A stretch of DNA of 64,000 nucleotides from a virus (IMGVR_UViG_3300036940_000207:5749-69748), one strand, 5' to 3'. Positions 11,812 to 36,909 are shown, counted from the first letter of the stretch. Numbers and translations: made by a program. The notes: generated by a model from the sequence alone, not told the origin.

Positions 11812-11822
11812 AAATATTTGTA

Positions 11823-11913
11823 AGAGGGACAGAGGGTAGCTCCCTTTGATTGAATACCCTTACTATTCAATCTAACCTCTATATTACTTTATTCAGTAAG
11901 GGAGAATAAAATG
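11823..11913 (+). promoter_or_regulatory. Structured RNA leader A of endonuclease gene
   Basis: Three-way junction; loop ACCCTTACT complementary to SD region AGTAAGGG. Confidence 0.7.
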
Positions 11914-12999
11914 GCAAAGAGATTAACATATGATCATGTAAAACATTCTATTGAAAAAGAGGGTTATGAATTATTAAGTGATGGGTACAAAAATGACAAC
12001 ACAAAATTAAAAATTCAATGTTCTGAAGGTCATATATTTGAAATGAGGTATAGAGCTTTTTATATGGGGCAAAGATGTCCAACTTGTGCAAGAATAAAAA
12101 GAGGAATGTTAAAAAGAAACACATTTCAATGTGTTAAAAGATTTATAGAAAATGAAGGATATAAACTTATTTCTAAAGAATATAAAAACGCACACACTAA
12201 GTTACAGATCAAATGTCCAGAAGAACATAGATTTGAAATGAAATTTAACGCTTTCCAACAAGGTCAAAGATGTCCTGAATGTGCCATTAAAAGAAATAAT
12301 GATCTAAAAAGATTTGATTATAAAGACGTAAAAAATTATATCGAATCCTTTGAAGGATATAAATTGCTGAGTGAAGAATATATAGGTTCTAATACAAAAC
12401 TAAAAATTCAATGTTCTGAAGGTCATATATTTAAAATGACCTTCGCTTGTTTTAAAAACCGTGGTCAAAGATGTCCTAAATGTTTTGGTAATAAGAGATT
12501 AACTAACCAAGAGATTATTGATTCACTAATCTTTTGTGAAAATATTAGAGAAAATAAAAATGAAGAAGTAGAAGTTACATGTGCATACTGTGGTGAATGG
12601 TTCATTCCTAAAAGATCAAATCTAACATATAGAATTCTATATGTTAATGGTGAAAAAAATAAAGAATCTAGATTGTATTGTTCACAACAATGTAAAGATA
12701 ATTGTCCCACGTATAATCAAAAATTATATCCCAAAGATTTTAAACCAGCAACATCAAGAGAAGTTCAACCTCAGTTAAGGCAAATGGTTTTTGAACGTGA
12801 TAATTATACATGTCAGCGATGTAACACTCATAAAGATGAATTAGAATGTGGTATACATTGTCACCATATATTACCATTAAATGAAGATCCGATACAATCA
12901 GCAGATGTAGATACATGTATAACCTATTGTGAGAATTGTCATAAGTGGATACATCAGAATGTTGCTGGTTGCGGATATGGTGAAATGAGGTGTGTATAA
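11911..12999 (+). CDS. HNH endonuclease with repeated Zn-finger units (putative homing endonuclease)
   Basis: Three GY.L.S..Y...TKL.I.C.E.H.F...GQRCP.C repeats; C-terminal CQRC...HCHHI...CENCH. Confidence 0.8.
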   Translation: MAKRLTYDHVKHSIEKEGYELLSDGYKNDNTKLKIQCSEGHIFEMRYRAFYMGQRCPTCARIKRGMLKRNTFQCVKRFIENEGYKLISKEYKNAHTKLQIKCPEEHRFEMKFNAFQQGQRCPECAIKRNNDLKRFDYKDVKNYIESFEGYKLLSEEYIGSNTKLKIQCSEGHIFKMTFACFKNRGQRCPKCFGNKRLTNQEIIDSLIFCENIRENKNEEVEVTCAYCGEWFIPKRSNLTYRILYVNGEKNKESRLYCSQQCKDNCPTYNQKLYPKDFKPATSREVQPQLRQMVFERDNYTCQRCNTHKDELECGIHCHHILPLNEDPIQSADVDTCITYCENCHKWIHQNVAGCGYGEMRCV

Positions 13000-13026
13000 T
13001 AAATAAGAAATGAGAAGGAGATCTTA

Positions 13027-13389
13027 ATGAGATTAAATAATTACTTAAATGAACGGAAAGGAAAGGCGTTGCCCTAATCACAAAGAAGAAAGATAAATAA
13101 AGAAGTTCAAAAATTACTCCAACCGACCTATTTCAAACAAATTCCATTACAAGATTTGTTTGATATATTAGATAAGTATGGCATTGTTCCGGTACAAGAA
13201 GATAACACATACTGGTCAGGTATGCTAGCTGGTGGAGTTAAAGATACTGTTCAGACATATTTTGAACTTGCCTGGAAAGATAGTAAAGAAGGTAAAACAT
13301 ATACAGAACCAGTAAATAATGCTATGTTAGCATTATCCTATTATAAAATGCCTTCTGGTAAATATGAGGTCATTGGATATATAACATAA
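13027..13389 (+). pseudogene. Hypothetical protein with in-frame TAA at 13075
   Basis: MRLNNYLNE start with AAGGAG RBS; the frame stays open after the TAA. Confidence 0.5.
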
Positions 13390-13399
13390 GGAGGATAAG

Positions 13400-13588
13400 A
13401 TGAATATATTAGAAAAATTAAATACTTATATTCAAGAATTTGATTCTTTAATTGAAAATGAAGATAAATATGAGAAAATATTTAAGAAAAAGTTAAAGGA
13501 ATGAGGTGTTGATAAGGCAAGTGAATTATCAAATAAGGATAAGAAGAAATTTTTTGATGAAATTGAGAAGGAATGAAAAGGGAAATAG
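13400..13588 (+). CDS. Small head-associated hypothetical protein, code 4
   Basis: KKKLKEWGV...KKKFFDEIEKEWKG; both W are TGA. Confidence 0.65.
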
Positions 13589-13590
13589 TT

Positions 13591-14324
13591 ATGAGATTAT
13601 ATGATTATCTAAATGAATCAAGAACTAAATCAATTCCTGAATTTAAAGCTCTTGATACTATAGTAACTGAATGTAAAGATATTGCTAGTAGATTTTTAGA
13701 TGATATATATATATCATGAGAGGAAGTAGAACAACTGAAGATTTTCTACATTTAAAACCTGGAAATGAATTAAGAAAATCTGCTCACACATCTAATTATT
13801 ATACACTTTTCATTAATAATCATCCATTATGAAAAGATTATCCTAAGAGACAAATAATATGTTCAGGTGGAAGTGGTGAAAGAGCAATGGCACATTTATC
13901 AAGAACTGTATATTATGTATTTCCAATAGATAGATCTAAAATAGGCATTTGTCCAGATGATGATATTTGATCATCCTTTGATGATCAAATATTAAGATAT
14001 TTTGAAATTAGAGATGTCTCTAATTTAGATCAATTTAACCAAATGTTGGATTATTATGGTTTTAGTGATGATAATTGACAAACATTTAAAAAACAATTGC
14101 AAACTGAAGAAATTGATGTGAAGAATAATAAAAATATGAATGCTATGAAATTATTAGAAGAAGTACTTAATCCTAATAAAAATGGATTTAAAGTTGAAAC
14201 TACTAATAATTTAAGTTTAAATTCATTAGATAATCAAGAAGTATGATTAGATAGTGAATGTATATTAGTTAGTTATAGTCAAAAAGAAAAATTAGAAAAT
14301 TTATTTAGAGATGAAGGATTATAA
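13591..14324 (+). pseudogene. ART-like paralog 4 with a frameshift at or next to an (AT)6 tract near 13710
   Basis: MRLYDYLNE; RG, YYVFP and NQEVWLDSE motifs. Confidence 0.5.
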
Positions 14325-14336
14325 GGAGAAATTATC

Positions 14337-14579
14337 ATGCCAGCAAATTTAGTTAAATCAGTTCAAAATAAATGTAACATGTCTAAAGAAGAAGCTGAAA
14401 AGAAATGAAAAGAAGCTAAACAAAAAGCTTCAGATCAAGGTCATAGTGAAGAATGAGATTATGTTGTTGAAATTTTTAAACATTTAGTAGGCAAGAAATG
14501 TGCTAACAAAATGGGATGAGATTTAAGTAAGAAAACTAATGAAGGAATACAATATATTATAGATAAATATCTGAATTAA
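14337..14579 (+). CDS. Small hypothetical protein, code 4
   Basis: AAGGAG RBS; three TGA read as W. Confidence 0.6.
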
Positions 14580-14594
14580 TTAAGGAATAATTTC

Positions 14595-15053
14595 ATGTCT
14601 TACATGCATAGTAAGGAAAATAAGGATACTACCAGATATTATCCTAAAAATAAAGAGAAATGTGATAAACAATATTATATCACACGTTCTTCATGAGAGT
14701 ATAAACTATTACAATGATGTGATATCAATTCTAATGTTTTGAAATGATCATCTGAACCAATAGGCATCCCTTATCAACATCCTATAAAAATGAGGGATGC
14801 CAGATACTATCCAGATGTATTGATTAAATGTAAAACTAAAAGTGGTAATGTTAAAGTATATCTCATAGAAGTAAAACCTTACAAAGAATGTAAACCACCT
14901 ATCAAATCAAAGGGCAAATCGAAGAAGACTATGCTTTATGAAGCTAAAACATGAGAAGTTAATAAAGCAAAATGAAAAGCTGCTCAAAGATATTGTAAAT
15001 TGAAGGGTTGAACATTTAAAATTATTACTGAGAAAGAACTATTTGGAAAATAA
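14595..15053 (+). CDS. gp4: Head completion nuclease (T4 gp4-like), code 4
   Basis: RSSWE, QWCD, WSSE, YYPD, IEVKP, NKAKW, GWTF; all six Trp are TGA. Confidence 0.9.
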
Positions 15054-15059
15054 ATTGAT

Positions 15060-15254
15060 TTAATTCTTCCTTATTGAAATTAAACAATTTTTATGACCAA
15101 AATGATCAGAACATTTATATCTTGTATATCTATCAGGTTTATATTCTCTTTCCTCTATTTGATGATAAATTTCATCACAATACTTTCCACAAATTTCACA
15201 TTTTCCAAAATATTCTGATGAATATTTTTTCCTAATCAATTTATATCTATACAT
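15060..15254 (-). CDS. Small Cys-containing hypothetical protein
   Basis: CEICGKYC motif, RBS present. Confidence 0.55.
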   Translation of the reverse strand: MYRYKLIRKKYSSEYFGKCEICGKYCDEIYHQIEEREYKPDRYTRYKCSDHFGHKNCLISIRKN

Positions 15255-15266
15255 AATATCCTCTTT

Positions 15267-15608
15267 CTATATTAACTTATAATCTTTACATATAGAATCT
15301 ATAATTTTATCCTGATCAGGTCCAACACCAATACATGTATAAGTTTTGTTACTAAATTCAGTTAATCCCAAATCTTGTACTAAAAAATTTGGAATATTGT
15401 TTTGATTACATAAATCTTTGATTTTAAATAATTCTTGTTCATCTCTACATCCAACAACAATCTTCTTATAGTTATCTTCTAACCATTTAGTAATTTTATC
15501 TGAACCGAAATGATTATATAATATCATAGTAGATGCGTGAGCAACTTGAGCCGCAACTTTACCCTTCCTCATATTTAAATCAGTTCTAACTATAATTACT
15601 TGTTTCAT
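15267..15608 (-). CDS. pth2: Peptidyl-tRNA hydrolase, Pth2 family
   Basis: KQVIIVRTDLNMRKGKVAAQVAHAS, QDLGLTE, CIGVGP; TGA-free. Confidence 0.92.
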   Translation of the reverse strand: MKQVIIVRTDLNMRKGKVAAQVAHASTMILYNHFGSDKITKWLEDNYKKIVVGCRDEQELFKIKDLCNQNNIPNFLVQDLGLTEFSNKTYTCIGVGPDQDKIIDSICKDYKLI

Positions 15609-15786
15609 TATACCCCTCATTTAATTTATCTATTTCTTCTTTTAATTCAGCAAATAAACAATAATTATCACATATAGGTTCATCATACTTAGTTGTTTCT
15701 TCAACACAATTATTATATATGAAATTAGCAGCAACTCTCATTAAATAAACAAATCTTGGTTCATTCTTTCCTCGTACAACTTCCAT
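15586..15786 (-). CDS. Hypothetical early protein
   Basis: ATG 15786 just after the trpS stop. Confidence 0.55.
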   Translation of the reverse strand: MEVVRGKNEPRFVYLMRVAANFIYNNCVEETTKYDEPICDNYCLFAELKEEIDKLNEGYNETSNYS

Positions 15787-15787
15787 A

Positions 15788-16756
15788 TTATATCCCCATA
15801 CTATGTTTGATACCATCCATTATATTTTCTTTAATATATTTCCTAATATTATTTCTTGAAAAATTGATACATTCTAACTCTAATTCATGTTCTTGTCCTT
15901 CTAGTTCTTTATATCGTTCTCTTGCTTCTCCTATATCTCTATTAACTAAATCAAATGTTCTTTCCTTTACATACTTCCAACTTAATCCATTATTCATATC
16001 TACCTTTAAATCAAATACTTCTTGATTTATACTAAATAATTCAAATAATTGAGTAATTGGAGATTCATTAAATTCTTTGGGAACTCCATCACCTTTATCA
16101 TTTGTTTTAATTGAGAATATATGTTTTCTCAATTTTTTCTCAGTACAGAATAATGGAATAATATTGTTATAACTCTTACTCATTTTCCTACCATCATAGC
16201 CTGGAATACTATGATGAGAAATTATTGGTTCAGGTACAGATAATAGATTAGATTTACGTTCATAATTAAATTTATTAACTATATCATTTGCCATTTCTAT
16301 ATGTTGAACCTGATCTGGACCTATTGTTACATACTTAGTATTGAATGAAACCAAATCTGCTGTCATTAATACAGGATATGTATATAATAATGTATTAACT
16401 CCTTTATCACTATCTTTACCCTTATGTTCATTATCATCTTTGATTGCTCTATATGCATGTGCTCTATTAAGTAATCCCTTAGATGTATATGCAGATAATA
16501 TAACATCTAATACCATAATTTCAGGAATTTGTGATTGAATCACAATATTATGAATATTAAAAGATTTTAGTATTCTAATAATTTCTTGTCTGTTTTTTAC
16601 AAGAATTTTTTTATCTTGGACAGAGGTAAGAGCGTGAAGATCTGCTATCAAAAATATAGTTTCATCTTTAAAAGGTAATATTGGTTTAATAGTAGATATA
16701 TAATTACCAAGATGTAATACACCTGTTGGTTTTATACCTGTAAGATATTTAAACAT
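15788..16756 (-). CDS. trpS: Tryptophanyl-tRNA synthetase, bacterial type
   Basis: TGIKPTGVLHLGNY (HIGH), YPVLMTAD, GPDQVQHIE, KMSKS; TGA-free. Confidence 0.95.
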   Translation of the reverse strand: MFKYLTGIKPTGVLHLGNYISTIKPILPFKDETIFLIADLHALTSVQDKKILVKNRQEIIRILKSFNIHNIVIQSQIPEIMVLDVILSAYTSKGLLNRAHAYRAIKDDNEHKGKDSDKGVNTLLYTYPVLMTADLVSFNTKYVTIGPDQVQHIEMANDIVNKFNYERKSNLLSVPEPIISHHSIPGYDGRKMSKSYNNIIPLFCTEKKLRKHIFSIKTNDKGDGVPKEFNESPITQLFELFSINQEVFDLKVDMNNGLSWKYVKERTFDLVNRDIGEARERYKELEGQEHELELECINFSRNNIRKYIKENIMDGIKHSMGI

Positions 16757-16967
16757 CTATCATCTCCATCGTTAATCGTAAAACTTGTGATAATTCTTTA
16801 CTAATTTTATCAAAAAATTCTAATTCATCAATGGCATCTTCTAATAACTGAAATTTTAGTTCACGTTTGGCTCCTTGAAGACTGTATCCTAAATTTTCAT
16901 GAAGGTCAACGATATCTTTAGGAGATATAGGTATTAAATTTCCATCTTCATCAAATATATTATTCAT
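16749..16967 (-). CDS. Hypothetical early protein
   Basis: 72 aa ORF in operon. Confidence 0.55.
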   Translation of the reverse strand: MNNIFDEDGNLIPISPKDIVDLHENLGYSLQGAKRELKFQLLEDAIDELEFFDKISKELSQVLRLTMEMIDV

Positions 16968-16970
16968 AAT

Positions 16971-17180
16971 TTAAATTCCTATTCTTGTAAATTTAAAATT
17001 TGGATCTCTTAGTGGACAATTTTTGGGAAAATTATTCGTAATCAATCACTCATTTATTACATTAAATACAGATTCATCTAAACTACACATGAACCTTTCT
17101 TCATATTGTAATAGAAAAGGACAAGATAGACAACCCTTAATTATTACTTCATTCCTTTCTTTATCATAATTATATCTCAT
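16971..17180 (-). CDS. Small Cys-rich protein with one in-frame TGA
   Basis: GCLSCPF...NE(TGA)LITNNFPKNCPL. Confidence 0.55.
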
Positions 17181-17183
17181 ATT

Positions 17184-17399
17184 TTACTCCTGTTTAGGTG
17201 GAAATTTAGAAAATGCCCTTTCTAAATGTTTAATAGGATTAGTAGGTTCACATTCATGTATATGTTCATAAATTTTATATCTTAAAACTGTATAATGTAC
17301 CCACTTACTTATTAAATTAAGTTGTTCATATGATTCACAAGAATCTATTGTTCTGATCAACTTTACATTTGCTATCCACCATTTAGGAAATAAATTCAT
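17184..17399 (-). CDS. Hypothetical early protein
   Basis: AAGGAG RBS; three Trp, all TGG. Confidence 0.6.
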   Translation of the reverse strand: MNLFPKWWIANVKLIRTIDSCESYEQLNLISKWVHYTVLRYKIYEHIHECEPTNPIKHLERAFSKFPPKQE

Positions 17400-17422
17400 A
17401 ATTCTCTCCTTTGTTTAAACCA

Positions 17423-17451
17423 ACTATAGTATAAATTTTTATAGTTGTCAA
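17423..17451 (-). promoter_or_regulatory. Early promoter of the trpS/pth2 operon
   Basis: TTGACA-N17-TATAGT. Confidence 0.75.
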
Positions 17452-17467
17452 TATGCAATGTAGTATT

Positions 17468-17621
17468 CTAATCCCTACGGGATTATGGGATTCAGTCACT
17501 AACGTTCCTTCATCCCATTACAATGTACTATTTATTATTAACTTATTGCATTGCATAATATTGTCCTTCCTTTCATGTGTCTTGCAGAACATAGTCTAAC
17601 AAGGTTGGTTAGTTTTGTCAA
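17468..17621 (-). repeat. Early promoter/leader/hairpin module, copy 1
   Basis: TTGACAAAACT..TGTTAGACT promoter, GAAAGGAAGGA-AATATTATGCAAT, two hairpins; second copy at 33828-33974. Confidence 0.8.
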
Positions 17622-17673
17622 GTAAAAATTATATAAATATAGTAGTAAAGATAATTACAATTTGAATTTTTTT

Positions 17674-17759
17674 ATAGAAGGACAGAGGGTAGCTCCCTTT
17701 GAAAGTGCTACTCCACTTTCTAACTTCTATATAATATAACCTGAGTGGAGGAAGATATG
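17674..17759 (+). promoter_or_regulatory. Structured RNA leader B of endonuclease gene
   Basis: ATAGAAG/CTTCTAT outer stem, same P2 as leader A, CTCCACT complementary to AGTGGAG SD region. Confidence 0.7.
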
Positions 17760-19010
17760 AGTAAAGAATTGTTTGAATTTTATTTTGGTAATGAAAAGAA
17801 TGAGTTAGAAGAATTGAACAAATGAATTGAGAATAACTTATTAGATAAGAATGGTAATTGTAAATCTAAATTAATAAAAAATAAATGACCTAAAAGACAT
17901 AACCAAATAAAAAAATTAACAAAATTTCTTGATGAACATTATGATAATATTAATATTAAACAAAGATTGTGACATATTAGAAATGAAGATTTAACAATAC
18001 AGAGATGTAATAATAGTAAATGTAACAATATAGTAAGATTTTCCCGTAATAACTATAATATTTATTGTTCTAAGTTATGTTCTCATTCAAACAAACCCAG
18101 TGGTAAAAGATTATCAGATGAAGTGGTCAAAGAATCTGTAGAAAATGATGAAGGTTACATTTTATTAAATAGATATTATGAAAATAATTGACATTATATA
18201 ACAGTAAGATGTCCAAATGGACATGAATATACTGTTTTATATAATAATTGAAAGAAAGGTGCTAGATGTGCTGAGTGTAACGGAACAAAGAAACATGATT
18301 TTAATGATATTAAGAATGAATTTAAAAATGAAAATTATGAAATAATATCTGATGAATACAAAGGAACTAATTCTTGATTAGAATATATTTGTCCAAATGG
18401 TAGATATAATAAAGTAACATATAAAATGTGGAAAAAGGGACAAAGATGTGATTGTATAGAATGTATAAAAAACATTGATAACTACAGACACACATATACA
18501 CCATATGAATTATATAAAATAACAAGTGAAAGAGGTTATATATTAAAAGAATGGAAAAGAGTTGGGACGGATAAACATATAGTACTCTACTTAATTTGTT
18601 CTGAGAATCACCATATAAAAATGACATTAGGAAATTTTCTAAAAGGACATGATTGTAAACATTGCGCTTGAATTGATAAAAGAAAATATGAAAATTGTAA
18701 AGACTTGGATTTGTACAAGAAAGTTAATACTAGGTATATGTGTAGAAGTTATAAAAAATATAAAGATATTATAAATCCTTATAATCTTGAAAGAGATAGA
18801 GATAAATATCATGTGGATCATATATATTCTATATCAGATGGATTTTTGAATTCTGTTCCACCATATATTATTTCATCTCCAGTAAATTTACAAATGTTAT
18901 GATGCACAGATAACTCATCAAAGTGTGGAGAATCTTGAATGACAAAAGAAGAACTTTATGAAAGATATTGAAATTTTTACAAGGAAACAATAAATGGCAT
19001 TAACATTTAA
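17757..19010 (+). CDS. Putative homing endonuclease with Zn-finger repeats (417 aa), code 4
   Basis: CPNGH..., GARCAEC repeats; YHVDHIYS...NLQMLW C-terminal nuclease-like domain. Confidence 0.7.
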
Positions 19011-19473
19011 ATTTAAAAAGAAATCACATGGGGTTACATGAAAAAGTGGTCATATGTATAAATTTAGTTATTCTCCATATAATCAAGACCCAACCCCCCA
19101 AATTTTATACTGTTATACAACAGAGGGAATCCACCCCAGGACTGGGCATCAGCACAGGTATCATTCTGGCATCAATATCAGCTATTTACCTAGAAAGATT
19201 AGAAAAAAATTTGTTGAAGATTGAAGAAAAGAATTTAGTAAAAATAAGAATATGAAAATCACTTTAACTAACCTCAAACGAAAATATCCTTATCTAGAAG
19301 AATTTTTTCGAAGATACAATATTAAACCAAACTACTACATTCGCAATGTTCAAGAGATACCACCAGAAGATTGACAGAAAGAAGTAGTTAAATCATGACA
19401 CAAAGACTTCTCAGCAACTATTAGAAAGAAAATTGCATCTAAACTCAAAAGATTCTTTACTGGAAATAGATAA
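18994..19473 (+). CDS. DNA end-protector-like protein (T4 gp2-like), code 4
   Basis: GHMYKFSY, GINISYLP, RRY and EDW motifs. Confidence 0.6.
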
Positions 19474-19476
19474 GAT

Positions 19477-19779
19477 ATGATTAATAATAATTGTGAAATT
19501 TGTGGTAAAAATAGATTGTTAGAAACACATCATATAAGAAGTAAGTGTTTTAATGGTACAGATAAACCTTATAATCTTTGTTACTTATGTAGTAACTGTC
19601 ATAAGTTAGTTCATTGTGGTTTAATAATCATTGAAGGTAGATTTGATTGTACAAGTGGAAATATAGTTGTTTGAAGAAAATTAAATGAAAAATCTGTAAC
19701 AGGTTTTGAAGATCCAGAAGTCTACTTAATCCCTAATACAAAATATTTAAGAGACAACTATATTAAAAAACATATTTAA
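19477..19779 (+). CDS. Small HNH endonuclease, code 4
   Basis: CEICG..ETHHI...N...LCSNCH..VH. Confidence 0.8.
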
Positions 19780-19792
19780 GGATAGATTAGAT

Positions 19793-20026
19793 ATGATAGA
19801 AAATGGATGAATGGAATGAAAAAATTATGTACTTAATATGTTAGAGAAATTAGAGAACAGAATAGATAACATAGAAAAAGATAATACTGATATAAAGATA
19901 GAAATTACTAGAATTTTAACCAAATCAAAGATTTATGGAGCATTATTTGGATTTATTGGTGCTTCTATAGTTACTCTAATTATTGGTATAATTATAGAAT
20001 TGATAAAATTTGGTTTACTTTTATAA
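19793..20026 (+). CDS. Holin-like protein (coiled coil plus C-terminal TM), code 4
   Basis: MIENGWMEWKNYVLN (two TGA); hydrophobic C-terminus. Confidence 0.55.
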
Positions 20027-20048
20027 ATATGACAAAAGAGGAAGGTTT

Positions 20049-21083
20049 ATGTTTAATATGGTTGATAGTTTTGCTGATAGAATAACAAATTGAATTACTC
20101 ATAAAAATATTCAACAAATAAGAAAGTATGAGAATATTAAAGAAAGTAACAAAATAAAAGAAGATTTAAAAAAATTAAAAAATCTTACTCTTAAATTAAA
20201 TGAACAAGAAAAGGAAATTCTTGATTTAAAAGAAATGTATCATATGTTGTTTAACTCTTTATGAAATGGTGTTGTTATATTAAGAAAGTGAGGTGATAAA
20301 TACATAATTAAGGATATTAATAAATCCGCTGAAAGAGTGCCATATATAAGCAAAGAATATATTAATGATGATGTAAAACAAGTATTTCCTGAAAGTAAAG
20401 ATTTTTGTAAATTATTTGAAAAAATTGATAAGGTTGTGAATACAGGTAGTAAAGAAAGATTTACATTAAAATGTAATTTTAAAGAAAATATACATTACTG
20501 ATTTGAATCCTTTATATATAGTTTAAATTCAAATGATATAGTAATCATCTTTGAGGATTATACAAAGTATAAGAAACAAGAAATTGTTAATGAAAGAAAA
20601 AATAGACTACTCAATTGTTCATTAGAAGTAAGTAAATTATTACTGAAAAAATGTACATATAATGATATTAGAAATATTTTGAAGCAGTTAAGTGAATCTA
20701 CTGATACTGAAAGAGTATTTTTGTTTAAAAATATTAATGATGCAGTAGGTGAATTATATTCAGAATATAATAAAAGTGAACAAAGTTGAGAAATGGTTAA
20801 TTTTGAAGATGTTCCTAACGTTAAAGAATATTTAAGTAGTGGTCATTATATATGTGATTCAACTGTCCCGCCTAATTCTAAAGATTTACAATTTTGTGAA
20901 AAACATGGAATTGAATCTTTCTGTATAGTTCCAGTATTTAAAGAAGGAGAATGATGAGGGTTTTTAGGATTTGAAGAAAAAAACTATAAAAAGAATTGAA
21001 CCTTTGATGATGTTATTATATTACAAACAATATCTGATATGTTGGGTGTTGTATTAGAGAGGTGTATTGATGATAATATATAG
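20049..21083 (+). CDS. PAS-GAF sensory-domain protein with no output domain (344 aa), code 4
   Basis: FNSLWNGVVIL...DINKSAE (PAS); RVFLF...IVPVFKEGEWWGFLGFEE...WTFDDVIILQ (GAF). Confidence 0.75.
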
Positions 21084-21301
21084 TAGAACATCACTTGCAA
21101 ACGATGTTGATGGAAATTTAACTAGATTAACCACTACCGGACCACAACAAGGAAGGCATCTGCTGTATATGGTGGTGGTACAAGTGCTGCTGTACAATAC
21201 GTTGACAAACATAAATTTCCTATAATTAGAGTTGATAAAGTTGAAACAGATAAGAAACATATAAATATAACTGTAAATGAAGTTAAGGAGATAGATTAAT
21301 C

Positions 21302-21730: not shown

Positions 21731-21732
21731 TC

Positions 21733-22041: not shown

Positions 22042-22053
22042 GGAGTAACAGAT

Positions 22054-25303: not shown

Positions 25304-25314
25304 GAGGTGAAAAA

Positions 25315-26850: not shown

Positions 26851-26883
26851 ATAGAATAGAATCAAATAAAAAAGGAGAATGTT

Positions 26884-27087: not shown

Positions 27088-27189
27088 GTAATTGTTATTG
27101 TTTGATTTTTAAAGTGTGGGAGAATACTATATTCTTTCACACTTTTTTTATAAATAATTTAGATAAATATTTATAATAGGAGAATAAAT

Positions 27190-27813: not shown

Positions 27814-27824
27814 GGAGAGAAATT

Positions 27825-28052
27825 ATGCAAGATAAGACATTATTAGAAAAATTAAATTTATTTTTAGGTGAATCTGAAATTGATTGAAAACAGGTAAAAG
27901 AAGCAATGATAAATGCCGCTGAAGATATCTTTGATGAACCAGATAAAAAGGTTATTGATGATATGATTTCTACTATTAAAAAGAGAAATGATGCTAAGGA
28001 TACTGAAGATGCGATCCAGATTGGCATTAATATGATGAGAAGTGAAGACTAA
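27825..28052 (+). CDS. Small head-region protein, code 4
   Basis: LLEKLNLFLGE N-terminus; one TGA. Confidence 0.6.
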
Positions 28053-28066
28053 TATAAGGAGAATTT

Positions 28067-28369
28067 ATGCAAAATAAACTATTAGAAAAAATTGATAAAT
28101 ATTTGGAAGGTAGTATTAACCTAGATGAAAAAGTTTCTAGAAAAGAAGCTCTTCAAAAAGTAGAGAGAACAATAAAATCAGCAAAAACAGACAAACAATT
28201 AGAAGTTGCATCTAAAATGGTTGGAAACTTTATTAAAATGTATGGTGAAAAATTCATTGATGATGTTAAAAATCTTTTAAGTCCCCTTAGAAAAAACACC
28301 ACTGATAAATTTCTGAGAATGATTGATGATCAAAAAAAGAAAATTGAACTGGAAAAAGAAAGATCATAA
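28067..28369 (+). CDS. Small head-region protein
   Basis: LLEKIDKYLE N-terminus. Confidence 0.65.
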   Translation: MQNKLLEKIDKYLEGSINLDEKVSRKEALQKVERTIKSAKTDKQLEVASKMVGNFIKMYGEKFIDDVKNLLSPLRKNTTDKFLRMIDDQKKKIELEKERS

Positions 28370-28480
28370 TTTTCCCATAAACACTGGACTTTTTAACAAT
28401 TTTAACAATTTCTAGTGTTTACTTATAAATAAGATTAGATAAAGACAAATTTAAAACAATTCTAGAAGGAGGAATAAAAT

Positions 28481-29215
28481 ATGGAATTAGATAAAATCCT
28501 AGAGATGTTAGGTGTTGATAAACTTGACGAATCTAAACAAACAGAAGTTCAGGAAAAACTTCAAACCATTATTGAAACTAAAGTAGATGAGAAGGTCAAG
28601 GAAAAGGAAGAAACTCTTAAAGAAGAGTTAACAGAACAATTTGAGCAAAAATTTGAAGATTATAAAACTGATATTACTGAAAAATTTAGTAATTTTCTGG
28701 ACGAAGTAATCGAAGAAGAGATGAAAATCCCTGAAAAGATTAAGGAATATGCAAGAAAGGGTGAATTATACTCTGATGTTATGGAAACATTGAAGGTAAG
28801 AATGGGAATTGATGAAGGTGTTCTTGATGATGAAACTAAGAGTTTGATTAAAGAATCAAGAGATGAAATTTCTAAACTTACTGATCAAGTTAATTCTTTA
28901 ACTTCTGAGAACATGGAAATGAAGAAAGATGCTAAAGAGTTAAGTGCTGGTCTTTATCTAAGAGAGAAATGTGAAGGTCTACCTTTTAAACAAAAGGAAA
29001 AGATTATTTCTTTACTAGAAGGTATTACTTCTAAAGAAGAAATTGATAAGAAGTTTGATGTTTTGGCTGAATCAACCAAGAATGAAGAAACTGAATTAAC
29101 TGAGGAAAATAAAGGTAAGGGTAAAGAGGAAGGTAATTTAACTGAAGAAGTAAGTGATGATCCATTTACCCAAATGAAACAACAATGATTAACCATTATG
29201 AGTGAAGAAAAGTAA
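28481..29215 (+). CDS. gp22: Prohead scaffold (T4 gp22-like), code 4
   Basis: E-rich coiled coil before the major capsid gene; late promoter at 28424. Confidence 0.8.
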
Positions 29216-29252
29216 TTGAAATATAAATATTCTAAAGGAGGAATTAAAAATT

Positions 29253-30458
29253 ATGAATAAACAAATTTTAGAAAAATGAAAGGAACTATTAGAGAGTGAA
29301 AATGCTCCAAAGTTCAAAAGTAATAAAGTTAAGGAAGCTACTGCATTGATGTTAGAGAACCAGTTTTCTTATTTAAGCAAACAAGGTTATAACATGAATG
29401 AAGCAATTTCTGATCCTGGTACAGCTGCTTATTCAGGTAGTTTAACACCTCAAGGAAATTCTTATGGTCAAAGTGGATACTTTCATAAGATTGCTATTCC
29501 AATGGTAAGAAGAACATTTCCTGAGTTAATTGCTCACGAAATTGTAGGTGTCCAACCAATGACTGGACCAGTTGGATTAGCATTTGCTATGAGATTTAAG
29601 GCTGATCAAACTTATAATAGTGGAACTAATCAAGAAATTGGTTACAATACTATTGATAAAGACTATTCTGGAACTTATGAAACAAGTGCTGGTGAAGCAT
29701 TAGGATCTAATGAAACTAATGATTTGGGTCTTGGATTTGGAGATGGTACAGCTATCAAAGAATTAAGTATGACCTTAGAGAAAGATCAGGTCGAAGCAAA
29801 AACCAGAAAGTTAAGAAGCAGATGGTCAATTGAAGTTGCACAAGATATTCAAAATATGCACGGACTTGATCTTGAAAGTGAAATGACAGAAGCACTTTCC
29901 TACGAGGTAACTGCAGAAATTGATAGAGAGTTAATTGGTGAGATCAGAAGTGTTGCACCTCCTACTTCATATGATTATGACACTGATTTTGATGGTAGAT
30001 GGGAATCTGAAAAATATAGAAATCTATATAATGCAATGATCAGAAAAGCAAATAGAATTGCAGTTAAGACAAGAAGAGGTCCAGCTAATTGGGCAGTTGC
30101 TAACCCAACTCTTTGTGCAGCTCTTGAATCTACACCAAGTTTTGCTACACATCCAACGGGTGCAAATGTAAACACTGCTATTACTGGTGTTGCAAGAGTT
30201 GGATCATTAGATGGTAGAATGACTCTTTATAGAGATACTTTCTATGATACTGATAGTATTCTATTAGGATTCAAGGGTGTGAACGAATACGATACTGGAG
30301 TTGTTTATCTTCCTTACATCCAATTAATGTTGGATAGAGTTACTGATTATGCAAGTTTCCAACCTGCAATTGGTTTACTAAGTAGATATGCAATTCATAA
30401 ACATCTCCACGGGGCTTCAAATTTCTATGAAGAATTAGTATTTACTTCAATGCCTTAG
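29253..30458 (+). CDS. gp23: Major capsid protein (T4 gp23-like, 401 aa), code 4
   Basis: AAGGAGG RBS; MNKQILEKW(TGA)KELLE; VGVQPMTGP, VEAKTRKLRSRWSIEVAQD. Confidence 0.97.
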
Positions 30459-30479
30459 TAGCTAATTACATAGCAACTT

Positions 30480-30513
30480 TAAAACCCTTATACTTAATTG
30501 TATAAGGGTTTTT
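30480..30513. terminator. Bidirectional terminator after gp23
   Basis: aaaacccttatac-ttaatt-gtataagggtttt. Confidence 0.85.
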
Positions 30514-30515
30514 TA

Positions 30516-31211
30516 TTATTCATATCTAACCTCATTAATTTGTTTTAAAATTTCAATTTCTCTGTTTATACCCGGAAAATATTCTGTTTGTACCGACCAA
30601 CCAAAACCTAAACCTTTATTTTCCCAAAAATCTATAAAATAAGGCATTACTGTTTCATTAGATACTTTAATAAAACTATCTTTCTCAAAAATTTTTTCTA
30701 ACAAAGAATAATCAAAATACTTATATAACTTATCAATTACATAATCCCATTCTTTTCTCTCTTCCATCAGTTTTTTATTCCCCAATTCACAAAATGTAGA
30801 AGGTAATGGGCATTTTTTATCATGAAAACCAACCTCATAATTATTATAATCCTTTAAATATTTCAAATCCAAATTTATAATATCTTTAAATATATACTGT
30901 ATAACAACTGATCTTAATTGTATCCAATAAGGAATTATAACTACTTTATATCCCATATTGGTATATACTTCTTTCTTTTTATAGTCATTTAAAATTGTGT
31001 CTGGATTAGTATAATGAAACTTCCCATTAAACTCAATGATTAAATTTAATTCTTCAATTCTATAATCAGGTCTGTTTTTTATTCCACTACCAGGAACAAT
31101 TTTATCGTGATATATTTCACACTCTGGTAAGAACTCGGTTAAAAATTTACCTAATATCTCTTCAGTTAGATACCCCTCAACTTGTTCATAATCATAATTA
31201 ACTTTAACCAC
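30516..31211 (-). CDS. PD-(D/E)XK / DUF559-like endonuclease
   Basis: RPDYRIEELNLIIEFNGKFHY; four Trp, all TGG. Confidence 0.6.
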   Translation of the reverse strand: MVKVNYDYEQVEGYLTEEILGKFLTEFLPECEIYHDKIVPGSGIKNRPDYRIEELNLIIEFNGKFHYTNPDTILNDYKKKEVYTNMGYKVVIIPYWIQLRSVVIQYIFKDIINLDLKYLKDYNNYEVGFHDKKCPLPSTFCELGNKKLMEERKEWDYVIDKLYKYFDYSLLEKIFEKDSFIKVSNETVMPYFIDFWENKGLGFGWSVQTEYFPGINREIEILKQINEVRYE

Positions 31212-31227
31212 ATTAAACTCCTTGTTT

Positions 31228-31785
31228 TTATTCCTTCTTATATATCAACTCCCATTCTTCACTATCAACCATTACATCTCTCATAGTATCGGGGTCTAAT
31301 CTTTTAGCTTCATATCCACCAAATTTATAACCTATCTTATCATAAGCATAAGAATAGAGTCAACTACAAATTGGGAAATCTTCTATAAATCCTATCCTCC
31401 TGAATAAGTAAATATCCTTTCTTTTTCTCAATAATTTAGTTAATGAAAAATCAGCTAGAAATAATAATAATTTTAATCCACCATATATGTTACCTTTATA
31501 CTTATTCAAATATTCTTGAATTACATGTTGTTCAAATTTAGTTAAATGTTTCTTCCTTCATACCTCAAATCTTTTATGATTATCAAATCATTTTAAGTAG
31601 TTAGTATCTTTAACTGTTAATCCAGCTTCGGAAATTGTATCAGGATATTTAAATCCTGATATATGTGTAGAATATACTCTTTCTTCTCCTGGTTCTCTAC
31701 TAAATCAAGCAACTAATTTACCAAACAATGATTTTCTATTAACACAAATAACATCTCCCGTTTCAAATTTTGGATAATTGATCAT
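31228..31785 (-). CDS. Permuted papain-like amidase (YiiX/YaeF-like), code 4
   Basis: GDVICV..., YSTHISG, ICSWLYSYAY; own TATAAATA late promoter near 31811-31818. Confidence 0.6.
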
Positions 31786-31866
31786 ATATCCCTCCAAATA
31801 AAAATTTAATTACTATATATTTATAGTAATAGAATTTTAAAAAGATATTATGGGAGTATTTAGTTG

Positions 31867-32052
31867 TTATGCATATCATTTATAAAGTTGTTTGAATAAA
31901 TCAGTAAGTTCTGTATATCCAAGTTGTATAAGAAAATTAACAAGTATTTCATCTGCGATGTGATGGTTTTCTTCTCTATCAGTTTGATCATCAACCAGTT
32001 TTTTCATTTTTTCAACTGCTTCAGTATAAATTTGCTTATTTGTTTTCTTCAT
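31867..32052 (-). CDS. Small hypothetical protein
   Basis: HHIADEIL...LGY...KW(TGA)YA. Confidence 0.55.
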
Positions 32053-32062
32053 AATTTTCCTC

Positions 32063-32272
32063 CTATACTAATTCAAATTTAACTGGTCCTTGATGTGGAT
32101 AAAATACAACACTGTACTTTTCTGCAACAAGATATACTGCCTTATCATTTTCATATATTAATTTGGTGAACTCTTCCAAAGTATCATAATCACTTAATTC
32201 TTTACTTAGTTCTACTGTGACAAGATGATGTTCAACTCCATTTAAAATCTGAAAAATCTTTATATGTGTCAT
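32063..32272 (-). CDS. Hypothetical early protein
   Basis: ORF in early operon. Confidence 0.55.
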   Translation of the reverse strand: MTHIKIFQILNGVEHHLVTVELSKELSDYDTLEEFTKLIYENDKAVYLVAEKYSVVFYPHQGPVKFELV

Positions 32273-32273
32273 A

Positions 32274-32582
32274 TTAATCTCCTATAATTTCAATGATATC
32301 AATTAATGAAACTAAATCACTAATTTTTAATAGTTTAGTAGCTTTCTTAATATATTCTTGTCTTGAATATTCAGTCCAACTACCATCATCATAATACCAA
32401 CCACAACCATCTTCATGATTATGTACACAAAATTTTTCATGTAATACTTCTGCTAATCTTAAAGTTTCTTCACTATAAGGCAGATTTTTTCTTTTCTTCT
32501 TTTCTTCCTGTAAAGAATTTTTAAGTTCCTCTAGTTCTCGTTCTCTTTTTTCAACATCTGATTCTAAATCACGGATATTCAT
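32274..32582 (-). CDS. Hypothetical early protein
   Basis: LHEKFCVHNHEDGCGWYY. Confidence 0.65.
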   Translation of the reverse strand: MNIRDLESDVEKRERELEELKNSLQEEKKKRKNLPYSEETLRLAEVLHEKFCVHNHEDGCGWYYDDGSWTEYSRQEYIKKATKLLKISDLVSLIDIIEIIGD

Positions 32583-32990
32583 AGAACCCCCAATTTTATT
32601 CTACTAAATTAATCTTCTGGACAATACACTTCAACTTGTTCGTTAAAATAATTAAACTTTTCACCTGGAGAAAAATATACTTTACAGATTGGACCATCAA
32701 CTATCCAACATTCCTTATTCTCATCCCACCACGAACAATCAGGATAGGTATCATAAGTAATTTCATTATTAACATCAAACAGTAATATAATTAGTTCTCC
32801 TATAGTTTTAAATAGTTTAATGATCTTCTTTCAAATTCACAAATTTCACATTTTTCATTTGTAGGTCTTAATTCTTTATATTGAAGAGATATACCCGCAT
32901 AATATGGACATAAAGAAACAATATTCCCTAGTTTATAATATGTTTCATGTCCCATTCTTATCCATTCATATTCATAACTTCTTCTATAAC

Positions 32991-33251
32991 TTATGATGGG
33001 TTATTTTTATTAACATATTCCATAAACTTATCAATTCCATCTGGTTTCCAAAACTCAATTAAAATCCAACCTGTTTTCTCATTAATTCCCTGGAGAAACG
33101 GACATGCGTTAAACTTTATTTTATATTCTTCATAATCTGTTAGTTGATTTAAAACCAATGATTTCAGAAATTTAATTTCTTCTTTGGTAGCATCTTCCAC
33201 TTCAATACAAAATTGATCATGAACACTTAATTTTAACTCAAACCTAGACAT
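32991..33251 (-). CDS. Hypothetical early protein
   Basis: AAGGAG RBS, ATG 33251. Confidence 0.6.
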   Translation of the reverse strand: MSRFELKLSVHDQFCIEVEDATKEEIKFLKSLVLNQLTDYEEYKIKFNACPFLQGINEKTGWILIEFWKPDGIDKFMEYVNKNNPS

Positions 33252-33376
33252 TATCAATCTCCTTTTGATTTCCCTCTCAAAGACAAACCCAGTATACCAA
33301 AGCATAAAAAAATGTCAAGAGAAATCCATAAAAATTTTCTCTTGACATTTCAAATGGTTACGTACAATTTTAATAA

Positions 33377-33742
33377 TTATTCTTGTTCAATCGAGATTTT
33401 CTTTGAATCATTCTTTTCTGTTTCTAAGTAAATTTTAAGTAATCCATCCTTAACATATGCCTTAACATCTCTAATCCCATTTCCAAGAAACAGAGTTTTA
33501 TTCAATTTTTTCCCATCATCATTATCACCAAATACTGTCAAATGCCCCTTATCTAATGTTACTTCTAAATTATCACTATTAAAACCAGGAACTTCAATTT
33601 CCACAAATCTATTACCTTCTTTATCCTTTTTAAACATATATTCAAGTTTATTAGTTAAGAAATTTTCAAACCAATTATCAAAATCTGCATTGAAAAAATT
33701 GGTTAAAATGTTAGATGGTCGGTATGTTAGTTCATTCCTCAT
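33377..33742 (-). CDS. Small heat-shock protein (Hsp20 family)
   Basis: IEVPGF...LEVTLDKGHLTV...AYVKDGLLKIYL; AAGGAGG RBS. Confidence 0.85.
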   Translation of the reverse strand: MRNELTYRPSNILTNFFNADFDNWFENFLTNKLEYMFKKDKEGNRFVEIEVPGFNSDNLEVTLDKGHLTVFGDNDDGKKLNKTLFLGNGIRDVKAYVKDGLLKIYLETEKNDSKKISIEQE

Positions 33743-33827
33743 ATTCAAAACCTCCTTATCAATTTATTTATTCTTAATATAACTATTAATTAAATCATTG
33801 TCAAGAGATAACCAACAATATATTATA

Positions 33828-33974
33828 CTAATCCCTGCGGGATTATGAGGATTCAGTCACTATCGTTCCTTCATCCTCATATCTTTATATATTAACTAAA
33901 TCTATTGCATAATATTATCCTTCCTTTCGTCTCTTGTTAAGAGACAGTCTAACAAAGTTGATCAGTTTTGTCAA
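33828..33974 (-). repeat. Early promoter/leader/hairpin module, copy 2
   Basis: Same architecture as 17468-17621, with compensatory stem changes. Confidence 0.8.
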
Positions 33975-34020
33975 CAGAAAATCTATAAATATTATTAAAG
34001 ATAAATGATAAGGTGATAAT

Positions 34021-34524
34021 ATGAGTGAATTAAATCGTAATAATTTAGCAGAAGAATTTGATATTGAAAATGAAGAAATTGAAATTGAAACATTTAAAGA
34101 AATTCTTGTTAAAGCAAAAGAATTAGAAGACCCTAATAATGTATTAACCAGTGTTATTGAGAAAGCTGGAAGATTTCTTGATTTAGTTGAAAGGGAATGT
34201 GTAAATGGAGCCATGTCAGCAAGATACAGTGAAGTTGCTGCTACTTTAATTAATGCAATTACCACAGCTGCAAATTCAATAGCTACAATTAATTCTGTAT
34301 GATTTAATGATGAATTGAAACAAGTAAGAATCAAGCAGCGTGATCGTGAGCTAGATCAGAAAGATAAAGAATTAGAATTGAAAAAGATGTATTACAATAA
34401 TCAACTTGGCGATAATGGTGGAACCACAAACAATAATGTAATAGTTACAGATAGGGAAAGTGTTCTTAAATTTCTTAAAAGTGAACAGAAGAAAGAATTA
34501 GGAGAAGGTGAAGGAACAGAATAA
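34021..34524 (+). CDS. gp16: Terminase small subunit (T4 gp16-like), code 4
   Basis: ARYSEVAATLI...TNNNVIVTDRESVLKFL; one TGA joins two track ORFs; late promoter at 33984. Confidence 0.7.
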
Positions 34525-34533
34525 ACATAAATA

Positions 34534-34773
34534 ATGATGAGGTTAATTATGACTCAAAGAGTAAGCAGAGAAAATTTATTTACTAAATTTGATTTTAAAA
34601 AGTGTTGTAGTGATAAACAATTTTTACATTATACACAGTTAAAGGAGGATACTTGCTACTTTGAATATGGTAAAAAAATTAATGCTAAGGGAGGTGATTA
34701 TCTTACAATAAATTCCTTGGGAAGGATAGAAATTATACCTAGACAAGAATTTGAACTAAAATTTAATTATTAA
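34534..34773 (+). CDS. Hypothetical protein
   Basis: 79 aa ORF between gp16 and phoH. Confidence 0.55.
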   Translation: MMRLIMTQRVSRENLFTKFDFKKCCSDKQFLHYTQLKEDTCYFEYGKKINAKGGDYLTINSLGRIEIIPRQEFELKFNY

Positions 34774-34786
34774 AGGAATTAACTTT

Positions 34787-35956
34787 ATGCAAAAAAATTA
34801 TCATTTGGACACAAACGTATTATTAGAAAGAGAAGATGCTATCAATATATTAAGAAATGGAGAAGAGAATAAAATTAATATATCAATAACAGTAATTAAT
34901 GAATTGGATCATTTACTTAAAGATAATAATAAACGTCCAAAGACATCTAAAGCAATACAAAATATATGAGATAATAGAGATTATATTAACTTTACAGGAG
35001 ATGTATCTTCTATAATTAATAATGATGATAGAATACTTAGAAGTGTTGATGGTGAAGAACCAATATTGGTCACTAATGATAGATTATTACAATTAAAAGC
35101 TTATATATGTGGAATCAATAGTGAGGAATTTAAAGATAGTTTACCATTCAAATCAGAATCAGAAAAATATACAGGATTTATTGATTGATACAAAAATGAA
35201 GATTATATCAATAATTGCTTTTATTTTAAAAATGGTAAGTTATTCTTCTGAAATGGAAAAAAAGAAAGATGTATAGATTATGAAAGAGAAATTTGAAAGG
35301 TAAAGCCGAAAGATGTATATCAAAAAGCTGCTATTGAATTGTTAACTGATAGAAATATACCACTAACTACAATTCAAAGTAAATCAGGTACTGGAAAGTC
35401 ACTTCTTTCTTTGGCATCTGCTCTTTATATGACATTTGAAAAGAAATTATATAATAAAATTATAATTATAAAATCATCTGCTGAATCAAGTGAATATATA
35501 GGTTACAGACCTGGAAATGTAGAACAAAAAATGGAACCTATCTGAAATAACTTATATAAATTATTATTAGAATTACATGAAGTTAGACCATTTAATAAAG
35601 CATTTATAGATCCTGAATCACCATTACTAGAAATAAATCCTAGATTTATAGAATTTGCTCCATTAAATTTTATGAGAGGAGATAATATCAAAAATGCATA
35701 TGTTGTTGTTGATGAAGGACAAAATATCCCTAGACATGAAATGAGAACATTATTAACTAGAATGGGTGAAAATTGTAAAGTTGTAGTAGAAGGTGATACT
35801 TCTCAAGTAGATCATCCAAGATGTAATACAGATAATAATGGTCTTAACTGAGTAGTTAAGTTGCTTAAAGGTGATAAAAGATTTGCTCATCTAAAGATGA
35901 GTTGTAAACAAACAAGAGGACCAATATGTGATATGGTAACACAATATAATCTATAA
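34787..35956 (+). CDS. phoH: PIN-PhoH protein, code 4
   Basis: LDTNVLL (PIN); SGTGKS, FMRGDNI, VDEGQN, LTRMGE, GDTSQVD. Confidence 0.92.
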
Positions 35957-36101
35957 AATAAGTTTAGGTATTCCTCAATTTTCATATGTACAATTATTTC
36001 AATTAGTTAATTCACTTCTGTTCCTGGCAGAGATCAACTAATTCTATACTTGATTGAGGTTTTCATAAAAAATTAAAACAAAAATTTAGGAAAACATAAA
36101 A

Positions 36102-36665
36102 ATGAGACTAATAAATTATTTAAATGAGAATTCAATAATTGATGAAATTAGAAAAATTTTAAAGACAAGATGTAAAAAATATCTTAATGAATTTTTACCT
36201 AATTTTAATGGAATGTATTATATGTGATCAGGAAGAGATGGAATAAGTAAACCATATACTATTAAAAAAGTTAGAAAAGATAGAAAACCAATGAACACAC
36301 CTTTAAAGATTCATAATAAAATTGATGATATGTTTGAAGATGAATTTGGTTATAGACCAAGAAGTAATTCAATTTTTGTTACTGGCAATAAAAACATGAC
36401 TGATCTATATGGTGATCCATTCATGGTGTTTCCGTTAATGAATTATAAGTATTTATGAAACCCAAATATTAAAGATTTTTACATGTCAGTTAATTTTGAA
36501 AAAACAAACGATGAACAACTAAAAAATATTGTAAAAAATTATAAAAATGATGAATTATATAGAGGTCTTAGAAGTGGTGTAGAAATAATGTTAACCTGTG
36601 ATGAATATCTCTTAATATCAGATGAACTAAAAGAAGAAGTGGATATAATACTAAAAAATTGATAA
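36102..36665 (+). CDS. ART-like paralog 5, code 4
   Basis: MRLINYLNE; WSGR, RPRSNSIFVTG, YG..VFP and VEIMLTCDEY motifs. Confidence 0.55.
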
Positions 36666-36820
36666 AATGATTAATGAAATAATTCTTATGAACTGTGAAA
36701 TGATAATGATCACATTTAATACTAATGAATTATGCTATAATTTGTATATAGATGGTATATTGGTAGATGTTAAAGATAAATTGATAGAATTATTTAAAAT
36801 AAATGATAAATAATGTTTAT

Positions 36821-36909
36821 ATAGAAGGACAGAGACTGATCATCTTTGATGAAGTAACATCTCCCTTCATCTAACTTCTATATAATAAAAATTAAGGAGA
36901 TGGAATATG
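36821..36909 (+). promoter_or_regulatory. Structured RNA leader C of endonuclease gene
   Basis: ATAGAAG/CTTCTAT outer stem; loop CATCTCC complementary to GGAGATG SD region. Confidence 0.7.

Follow-up and report, generated by a model that had tools for sequence, protein, structure and literature searches.

In the viral stretch of DNA IMGVR_UViG_3300036940_000207:5749-69748 (64 kb, called the window here, with positions counted from its first letter) three endonuclease genes are each preceded by a leader of the same design, in which a three-way-junction RNA presents a loop that is complementary to the ribosome-binding region of the gene that follows. Our preferred reading, to which we give a probability of about 0.75, is that each of them (leaders A, B and C) acts in cis to throttle translation, as a self-contained device within a mobile homing-endonuclease cassette. 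Leaders of this kind were also found in other viral and metagenome contigs.

An annotation made earlier from the sequence (the first-pass annotation) had proposed the layout P1-GAC-P2-P3-TAA-P1' for the three leaders, and all the helices and complementarities that it listed are present where it had placed them (Table 1). The minimum-free-energy fold obtained with RNAfold is the three-way junction for leaders A and B and nearly so for leader C, and the junction alone is more stable than expected by chance in all three (z = -2.5 to -3.6). A covariance model of the three-way junction, R1, was built from eight copies. With this model the three leaders score 72.6-75.6 bits, whereas the rest of the window scores 12.3 bits or less even with the filters off, and the core sequence pattern has three matches in the window with zero expected. 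The whole virus record, which is 69.7 kb long, contains exactly three copies of the leader.

In each of the three leaders the P3 loop matches the region of the Shine-Dalgarno sequence. The P3 loop of leader A, CCCUUAC, faces GUAAGGG with a duplex energy of -12.0 kcal/mol, and all 7 nucleotides of the loop are paired; the partner lies in the loop of a further hairpin (P4), which holds the start of the Shine-Dalgarno and is followed immediately by the AUG. In leader B two 6-nucleotide loops, CUACUC and GAGUGG, pair with one G.U, and a natural variant found in run X21 (T17709C) turns this G.U of the loop-loop helix into a G-C, so that pairing is kept. In leader C the match is CAUCUCC with GGAGAUG (-11.9 kcal/mol).

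The same relation is found across the family. The P3 loop is 6-10 nucleotides long and usually starts with CC, and a typical CC(U)NNNN pairs with NNNN(A)GG, in which the Gs are the first of the GGAGG. We compared cognate with non-cognate duplexes by pairing the P3 loop with the 70 nucleotides after P1' of each member. The mean duplex energy is -7.9 kcal/mol for cognate pairs versus -4.3 kcal/mol for non-cognate pairs, and the cognate partner ranks best of 44 in 23 cases and among the top two in 30 (permutation p <= 1e-4). When the comparison is confined to positions -28 to +6 relative to the start codon, 39 of 43 members can form six or more uninterrupted pairs with their own P3 loop, as against 27% for non-cognate combinations. 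There are 40 different ribosome-site strands in this set; from the end of the paired strand to the start codon the median distance is 8 nucleotides. The earlier claim that the P3 loop covaries with the Shine-Dalgarno region of its own gene, made from three leaders, therefore extends to about 40 distinct members. Four viral or metagenome contigs (L129, L145, L216 and L233) carry two to three leaders each; copies within one genome differ in the P3 loop and in the ribosome-site strand, which indicates that each leader addresses only its own gene.

The target strand itself is usually part of a structure, since it forms the loop of the small hairpin P4, whose stem flanks it directly. A P4 stem of at least 4 base pairs is found in 59% of the members versus 28% of the controls, and its pairs covary (ACCU/AGGU, AUCU/AGAU and AACUU/AGGUU). 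Because the ribosome site sits in the P4 loop, the Shine-Dalgarno would be held from two sides and the long-range contact would be a loop-loop kiss between P3 and P4. The suggestion that the leader is a kissing loop and not a plain hairpin gains support from this hairpin around the ribosome site.

The family was collected with sequence patterns and with R1. A 14-base pattern gave more than 116 matches, mostly due to chance, and was lengthened to 19 bases, which brought in more copies from viral contigs; a 20-base version brought in more from metagenome contigs. The first-pass annotation had proposed that a covariance model be built and run on other phage sequence, and the pattern and model searches gave 45 R1 hits, corresponding to about 40 distinct leaders. 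True members score 36-76 bits and are set apart from the chance matches. One group of candidates (L089/L120, 27-30 bits) was rejected as chance, as it falls in a protein-coding region and its P3 is broken by synonymous changes.

In the alignment of the 45 hits, 92.1% of the paired cells are paired versus 68.6% after shuffling, both-sided changes are seen in 17 of the 21 pairs, and all three helices covary. The covariation score is 0.585 versus 0.160 for shuffled alignments, none of 500 shuffles reached the observed score, and it falls to 0.05-0.14 when the 3' partners are slid by one to three columns. One pair of P2, 14-39, is a G.U in all 45 hits, which makes sense only in RNA. The predicted RNA-level structure is thus borne out in the larger alignment by compensatory changes in all helices and by this invariant G.U pair. 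The G.U is part of a nearly invariant core, G-GAC-AGAG..CUUU-GA..UC-UAA-C; hits that were found by the model only retain the GAC and the U(A/U)A with few changes, and they too hardly vary at the foot of P2, which includes the G.U, or at the foot of P3.

A search of 185,579 cellular genomes gave 34 pattern matches, of which only two are real, both on contigs of metagenome-assembled genomes, and we consider the element to be essentially a phage feature. The two members lie at L281:5257-5319 and L273:2679-2747; the label of the first contig is Promethearchaeota (63 kb) and that of the second Treponema (15 kb), and both are probably phage contigs that were binned with cellular genomes. A divergent member (38.7 bits) is located upstream of an I-TevI-like gene in the cultured Enterocloster phage CB457P1, at 8654-8713 of OP172753.1, and the same 20-nucleotide P2 core was matched by BLAST in four sister phages of CB457P1. 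In CB457P1 a group I intron core (RF00028, 93.6 bits) was observed at L266:1132-1463 (OP172753.1, ~8285-8616), ending about 38 nucleotides before the divergent leader and the I-TevI-like gene. As the intron core ends so close before it, this leader may lie inside the intron, between the core and the endonuclease frame.

A small sub-class departs from the common arrangement. In L182, L195 and L199 the P3 loop lies over the AUG and not over the Shine-Dalgarno; the members of the sub-class are L182:5786-5852, L195:962-1029, L199:639-707 and L214:11720-11777. The leaders of L195 and L214 start a few bases after a tRNA gene, and L214 has about 25 tRNA genes.

The genes that follow the leaders were examined by sequence match. 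The three genes in the window, which had been annotated as endonucleases, are all of nuclease type, with HNH and CapR matches for gene A, a phrog_559 HNH match for gene B and a Vsr/DUF559 match (phrog_3339) for gene C. Across the family nearly all of 33 downstream proteins are HNH (including EndoVII-like), GIY-YIG/SegE or Vsr/DUF559 proteins, and NUMOD3 is present in ten of the 33. A small HNH-like gene (100 amino acids) at 19477-19779, which follows nuclease B and a gp2-like gene in the operon, is without a leader of this family.

One of the cassettes is polymorphic. We compared contigs of four DNA runs over 11300-19500, and in a variant strain from the same oil-field samples (runs X22 and X24) position 11790 is joined to position 13400 by 23 bridging letters. 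These letters align to 11791-11813 at 15 of 23 positions, the stop codon included, so that the block absent from the variant strain is 11814-13399. The block starts about 9 nucleotides before P1 of leader A, and it also brings a new Shine-Dalgarno for the resident gene at 13400. Since leader A is inside the missing block, the leader belongs to the mobile block and lies at its 5' edge. The idea that the leader travels with the nucleases is upheld in two ways, as four or more unrelated nuclease families follow it and as leader A is absent together with gene A. Presence/absence polymorphism was seen for cassette A only; for cassette B there was none in the contigs over 11300-19500.

The cassette-less allele has about 14 differences from the window in 11713-11758 and 8 of 23 in 11791-11813, and there are none in the remainder of the upstream gene or in the right flank (13400-13565). 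These differences beside the insertion look like target-site divergence or a co-conversion tract, and their clustering at 11713-11813 gives an indirect hint of site-specific cleavage of the cassette-less allele. The same changes remove the Shine-Dalgarno AAGGAG, which serves the gene at 13400 in the cassette-less allele. The second frame of the cassette (about 120 codons, 13003-13389) has an in-frame TAA at 13075-13077. It was considered as a possible copy of the resident downstream gene, and this was rejected as there is no significant protein similarity; the similarity is limited to the first ~25 bases, at the start of the resident gene at 13592. Nuclease A together with the second frame uses TGA for tryptophan zero times and TGG four times, versus 172 TGA and 58 TGG in the other genes, which hints that the block came from a standard-code phage. 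A foreign origin of gene A by its codon use alone was rejected, as its counts (0 TGA versus 2 TGG) are not significant. In mapping the boundaries of cassettes B and C we looked at relatives of the neighbouring genes. The large terminase has relatives with 36-50% identity and the scaffold-like gene has relatives with 39-49%; these have neither leader nor nuclease and are too distant for the junctions to be mapped. Relatives of the gp2-like gene were not found.

Based on these data the throttle can be pictured as follows. P1 would clamp the three-way junction, and the leader would fold independently of its neighbours. P3 would present its loop and, after an A-rich linker of ~7-16 nucleotides, the ribosome region would fold as P4, with the first Gs of the Shine-Dalgarno and the 4-6 nucleotides before them in the loop and the remainder (AGGU or AGAU) as the 3' strand of the stem. 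The two loops would form a kissing helix of 6-9 base pairs, the Shine-Dalgarno would be held on both sides and 30S subunits would bind rarely. The nuclease would be kept low whatever the strength of the surrounding late operon, beside a scaffold-like gene and before the large terminase gene and, as the device lies at the 5' edge of the cassette, it would move with the nuclease gene. The fold, its covariation, the association with nuclease genes and the position of leader A within the insertion are shown by the data, whereas repression is inferred from the pairing, and so is a constitutive rather than a regulated action; no alternative conformer, ligand or protein was found, which makes a constitutive throttle at least as likely as a switch.

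Several points weigh against this interpretation or limit the evidence for it. The pairs were counted in an alignment that had been fitted to the model, and a pattern that fixes the core was the source of most members, so that the invariance of the core is partly an ascertainment effect. The variable positions of the helices and the pairing with the ribosome site were not fixed by the pattern; yet, the helices were still aligned to the model structure, which leaves the ribosome-site test as the only one independent of the model. The P4 stem has only three A-U pairs in leader C and 3 base pairs in leader B. Leader L148 precedes a tail tube gene and has no match between loop and ribosome site. 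Finally, the junction core seems to be conserved beyond what masking alone would require, a hint that it may bind a factor or have a special fold. The orphan leader L148 (L148:1233-1296, 49.9 bits) is directly upstream of the tail tube gene, and as its P3 loop does not match the ribosome site it may be a relic that was left after loss of a nuclease gene.

The window is part of a 69.7-kb IMG/VR virus record with a completeness of 29% according to CheckV, and the DNA runs that contain the stretch are labelled as oil field metagenome. Its G+C content is about 27%, and TGA is read as tryptophan by most genes; some minus-strand genes are without TGA, for example 10055-10759 and 15788-16756. The window contains a myovirus late module (portal, major head protein, large terminase, tail sheath and baseplate genes) and genes for PhoH, polynucleotide kinase and a gp2-like DNA end protector, and no tRNA genes were found in its 64 kb. 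With gp17 of cyanomyoviruses the large terminase shares about 37% identity, and it matched 2,691 phage records, the top matches being from phages of Escherichia, Synechococcus, Klebsiella and Vibrio. A split large terminase was considered and rejected, as the 511-amino-acid protein aligns to gp17 over residues 9-480. The T4 late-promoter word TATAAATA has 19 copies on the plus strand versus 6 on the minus strand of the window, and several copies are 30-70 nucleotides upstream of gene starts, including that of the tail sheath gene. Judged from its gp17-like large terminase and the strand-biased TATAAATA motifs, the phage is T4-like, a member of the T4 superfamily. The gene starting at 13592 is broken across two frames in the window (13592-13755 and 13692-14324), and a TA repeat at 13703 is 2 nucleotides shorter in contigs from three runs; together these suggest that the record may carry a frameshift or an assembly error.

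Table 1. Features of the three leaders, their genes and the cassette (positions in the window).
Feature	Position	Strand	Details
Leader A, three-way junction	11823-11880	+	75.4 bits with model R1; fold prediction
Leader A, P1	11823-11827 / 11876-11880	+	5 base pairs
Leader A, GAC; UAA	11828-11830; 11873-11875	+	
Leader A, P2	11831-11836 / 11842-11847	+	6 base pairs, loop UAGCU
Leader A, P3	11848-11856 / 11864-11872	+	9 base pairs, loop CCCUUAC
Leader A, P4 hairpin	11888-11910	+	7-base-pair stem UUUAUUC/GAAUAAA, loop AGUAAGGGA
Leader B, three-way junction	17673-17731	+	75.6 bits with R1; fold prediction
Leader B, P1	17673-17680 / 17724-17731	+	8 base pairs
Leader B, P2	17684-17689 / 17695-17700	+	same as in leader A
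Leader B, P3	17701-17707 / 17714-17720	+	7 base pairs, loop CUACUC
Leader B, P4 mini-hairpin	17740-17751	+	CCU-GAGUGG-AGG; carries the Shine-Dalgarno, loop pairs with P3 loop
TATAAATA, T4-type late-promoter motif	17632-17639	+	~35 nucleotides upstream of leader B
Leader C, three-way junction	36817-36885	+	72.6 bits with R1; fold prediction
Leader C, P1	36817-36827 / 36875-36885	+	11 base pairs
Leader C, P2	36831-36835 / 36843-36847	+	5 base pairs, palindromic loop CUGAUCA
Leader C, P3	36848-36854 / 36865-36871	+	7 base pairs, loop UAACAUCUCC
Leader C, Shine-Dalgarno strand GGAGAUG	36896-36902	+	complementary to P3 loop 36858-36864
Homing endonuclease gene A	11911-12999	+	HNH with CapR/zinc-ribbon repeats, 362 amino acids, no TGA codons
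Endonuclease gene B	17757-19010	+	417 amino acids, phrog_559/681 (HNH-type), 10 TGA=Trp codons
Homing endonuclease gene C	36907-38262	+	451 amino acids, DUF559/Vsr-like, phrog_3339
gp17-like large terminase gene	38271-39806		511 amino acids, directly downstream of gene C
Inserted cassette	11814-13399	+	leader A, nuclease A and an extra 120-codon frame; absent from variant strain

The first-pass annotation did not recognise the leader as a named Rfam family, and a scan of the window with Rfam 15 (4227 models) agrees with it, as nothing reached the gathering score. Looser Rfam 15 scans, with E <= 1 on 11 member loci and E <= 10 on leaders A, B and C, gave only tRNAs, the group I intron and chance sub-threshold matches away from the leaders. 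The sole sub-threshold match that overlaps leader A, PK-repZ, was rejected with 17.6 bits versus the 44 needed. Full-text literature searches for endonuclease-linked motifs found no description of the leader RNA.

Parts of this architecture are found in other RNAs. ColE1 RNA I/RNA II and HIV TAR-TAR* form fully paired loop-loop kissing complexes, in which two separate RNAs interact in trans. Most members of the family, leaders A and B among them, likewise have loops of 6-7 nucleotides that are complementary throughout; unlike in those systems, a single mRNA leader contains the two hairpins, and the ribosome-binding site is part of one of them. In the preQ1-II and SAM-II/V riboswitches the Shine-Dalgarno is sequestered in a pseudoknot, and the purine riboswitch is a three-way junction with an L2-L3 loop-loop contact. 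The leaders resemble these, in a comparison made through the Rfam models only, in having the Shine-Dalgarno in a long-range tertiary pairing and a junction with a conserved core and a loop-loop contact. They differ in that they match no Rfam model and that the genes downstream are selfish nucleases and not metabolic genes.

Homing-endonuclease genes of T-even phages (I-TevI, I-TevII, I-TevIII and segB) and mobE of Aeh1 are preceded by hairpins that sequester the ribosome-binding site, and in T4 a late promoter inside the hairpin frees the late transcripts (PMC2988022). The leaders described here are likewise cis RNAs directly upstream of a phage homing-endonuclease gene and are predicted to pair with its Shine-Dalgarno, in polycistronic messages of a T4-like phage and with the presumed purpose of keeping the nuclease low or late. 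However, the T-even hairpins are simple and idiosyncratic, each a single contiguous hairpin, a feature that the leaders lack; the leader family is conserved, consists of a three-way junction and P4 joined by a loop-loop helix, and is common to at least four unrelated nuclease families in many phages. We regard the leader as a new RNA family whose job is of a known type and whose architecture is more elaborate and can be programmed.

The leader might instead work as a temporal device of the T4 type, in which early or middle read-through mRNAs are inhibited and the late mRNAs escape because they start from a late promoter that follows the anti-Shine-Dalgarno loop and precedes the Shine-Dalgarno. 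The documented T-even logic, the T4-like character of the phage and the A-rich linker, where ATAAAT is present in 6 of 44 members, fit such a device, but TATAAATA itself stands between junction and ribosome-binding site in none of the 44. Perfect copies occur elsewhere in the phage and none inside leaders A, B and C, nor is there a sigma-70-like site inside these leaders. The copy of leader B lies upstream of the entire structure, which places the whole leader inside the late transcript, and we regard this explanation as very improbable. Another option is that translation is coupled, so that only a ribosome terminating on the upstream gene would melt P1, loosen the junction and allow the nuclease to be translated. 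A co-directional upstream frame is present in 25 members, and in 12 of these its end lies 1-10 nucleotides before P1; the gap is 11 nucleotides for leader A and 3 nucleotides for leader C, where a 37-codon frame ending at 36813 was read by eye. Half of such members thus have a close stop codon, which makes coupling possible but not general: leader B and many others are without a nearby upstream frame, the local hairpins P3 and P4 could kiss even after P1 opens, and tight spacing is usual in phage genomes. We therefore find coupling improbable. It is also conceivable that the element works at the DNA level, as an operator or a site of recombination or homing, or that it is a signal for RNA processing or stability, as it is at the very edge of the mobile block, its palindromic P2 loops could be protein-binding sites and members of the sub-class come just after tRNA genes, where processing enzymes act. 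Yet, the invariant G.U and the many G.U substitutions are meaningless in duplex DNA, the element is found on the coding strand without exception, immediately before the gene, its most variable part follows the ribosome-binding site of the gene to which it belongs and no ribozyme family was matched, which together make this option extremely improbable.

The conservation of the core raises the question of whether the leader is a true sensor, in which the junction core binds a small molecule, an ion or a conserved protein of phage or host, or the self-complementary P2 loop pairs with a second leader, and the kiss is made or broken under a particular condition. The near invariance of GAC, UAA and the bases of P2 and P3, which holds even in the model-only hits, speaks for a sensor. 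So does the P2 loop, which has a palindrome of at least 4 nucleotides in 16 of 25 distinct P2 hairpins (versus 21% of P3 loops and 35% after shuffling; p ~0.003), although some of these palindromes are mere extensions of the hairpin. In the sub-class the P2 loop (CCCC, CGUCCA or UUCCAC) is perfectly complementary, over 6 nucleotides, to the loop of an extra downstream hairpin, which makes a loop-loop contact plausible as a general role for P2; in the main class, however, no cis partner of the P2 loop was found within 90 nucleotides. No alternative, mutually exclusive helix was seen and the leader resembles no known aptamer in Rfam, and on balance we consider a sensor rather unlikely. In its more specific form the invariant core would be a sensor carried by the selfish genes, be it a new aptamer, a protein-binding module or a device for dimerisation through the P2 loop, that opens or locks the kiss by a cue (co-infection, the stage of infection or the concentration of leader RNA); this we find unlikely.

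The throttle that we propose touches a wider question in phage biology. In large phages few selfish genes are commoner than those for homing endonucleases. How the carrier is spared when such genes sit in strong operons is, to our knowledge, understood for a few T-even cases only, each with an ad hoc hairpin. In the leader family one conserved RNA module serves unrelated nuclease families and is retargeted to its own ribosome site by changing two loops. For phage biology this suggests that mobile nucleases have a general and portable governor of their expression. RNA biology gains a class of structured RNA that is well supported, that has a kissing complex within one molecule and whose invariant core calls for an explanation. 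The module could become a compact, programmable translational attenuator for engineering, and the divergent member in cultured Enterocloster phages makes the leader family testable at the bench.

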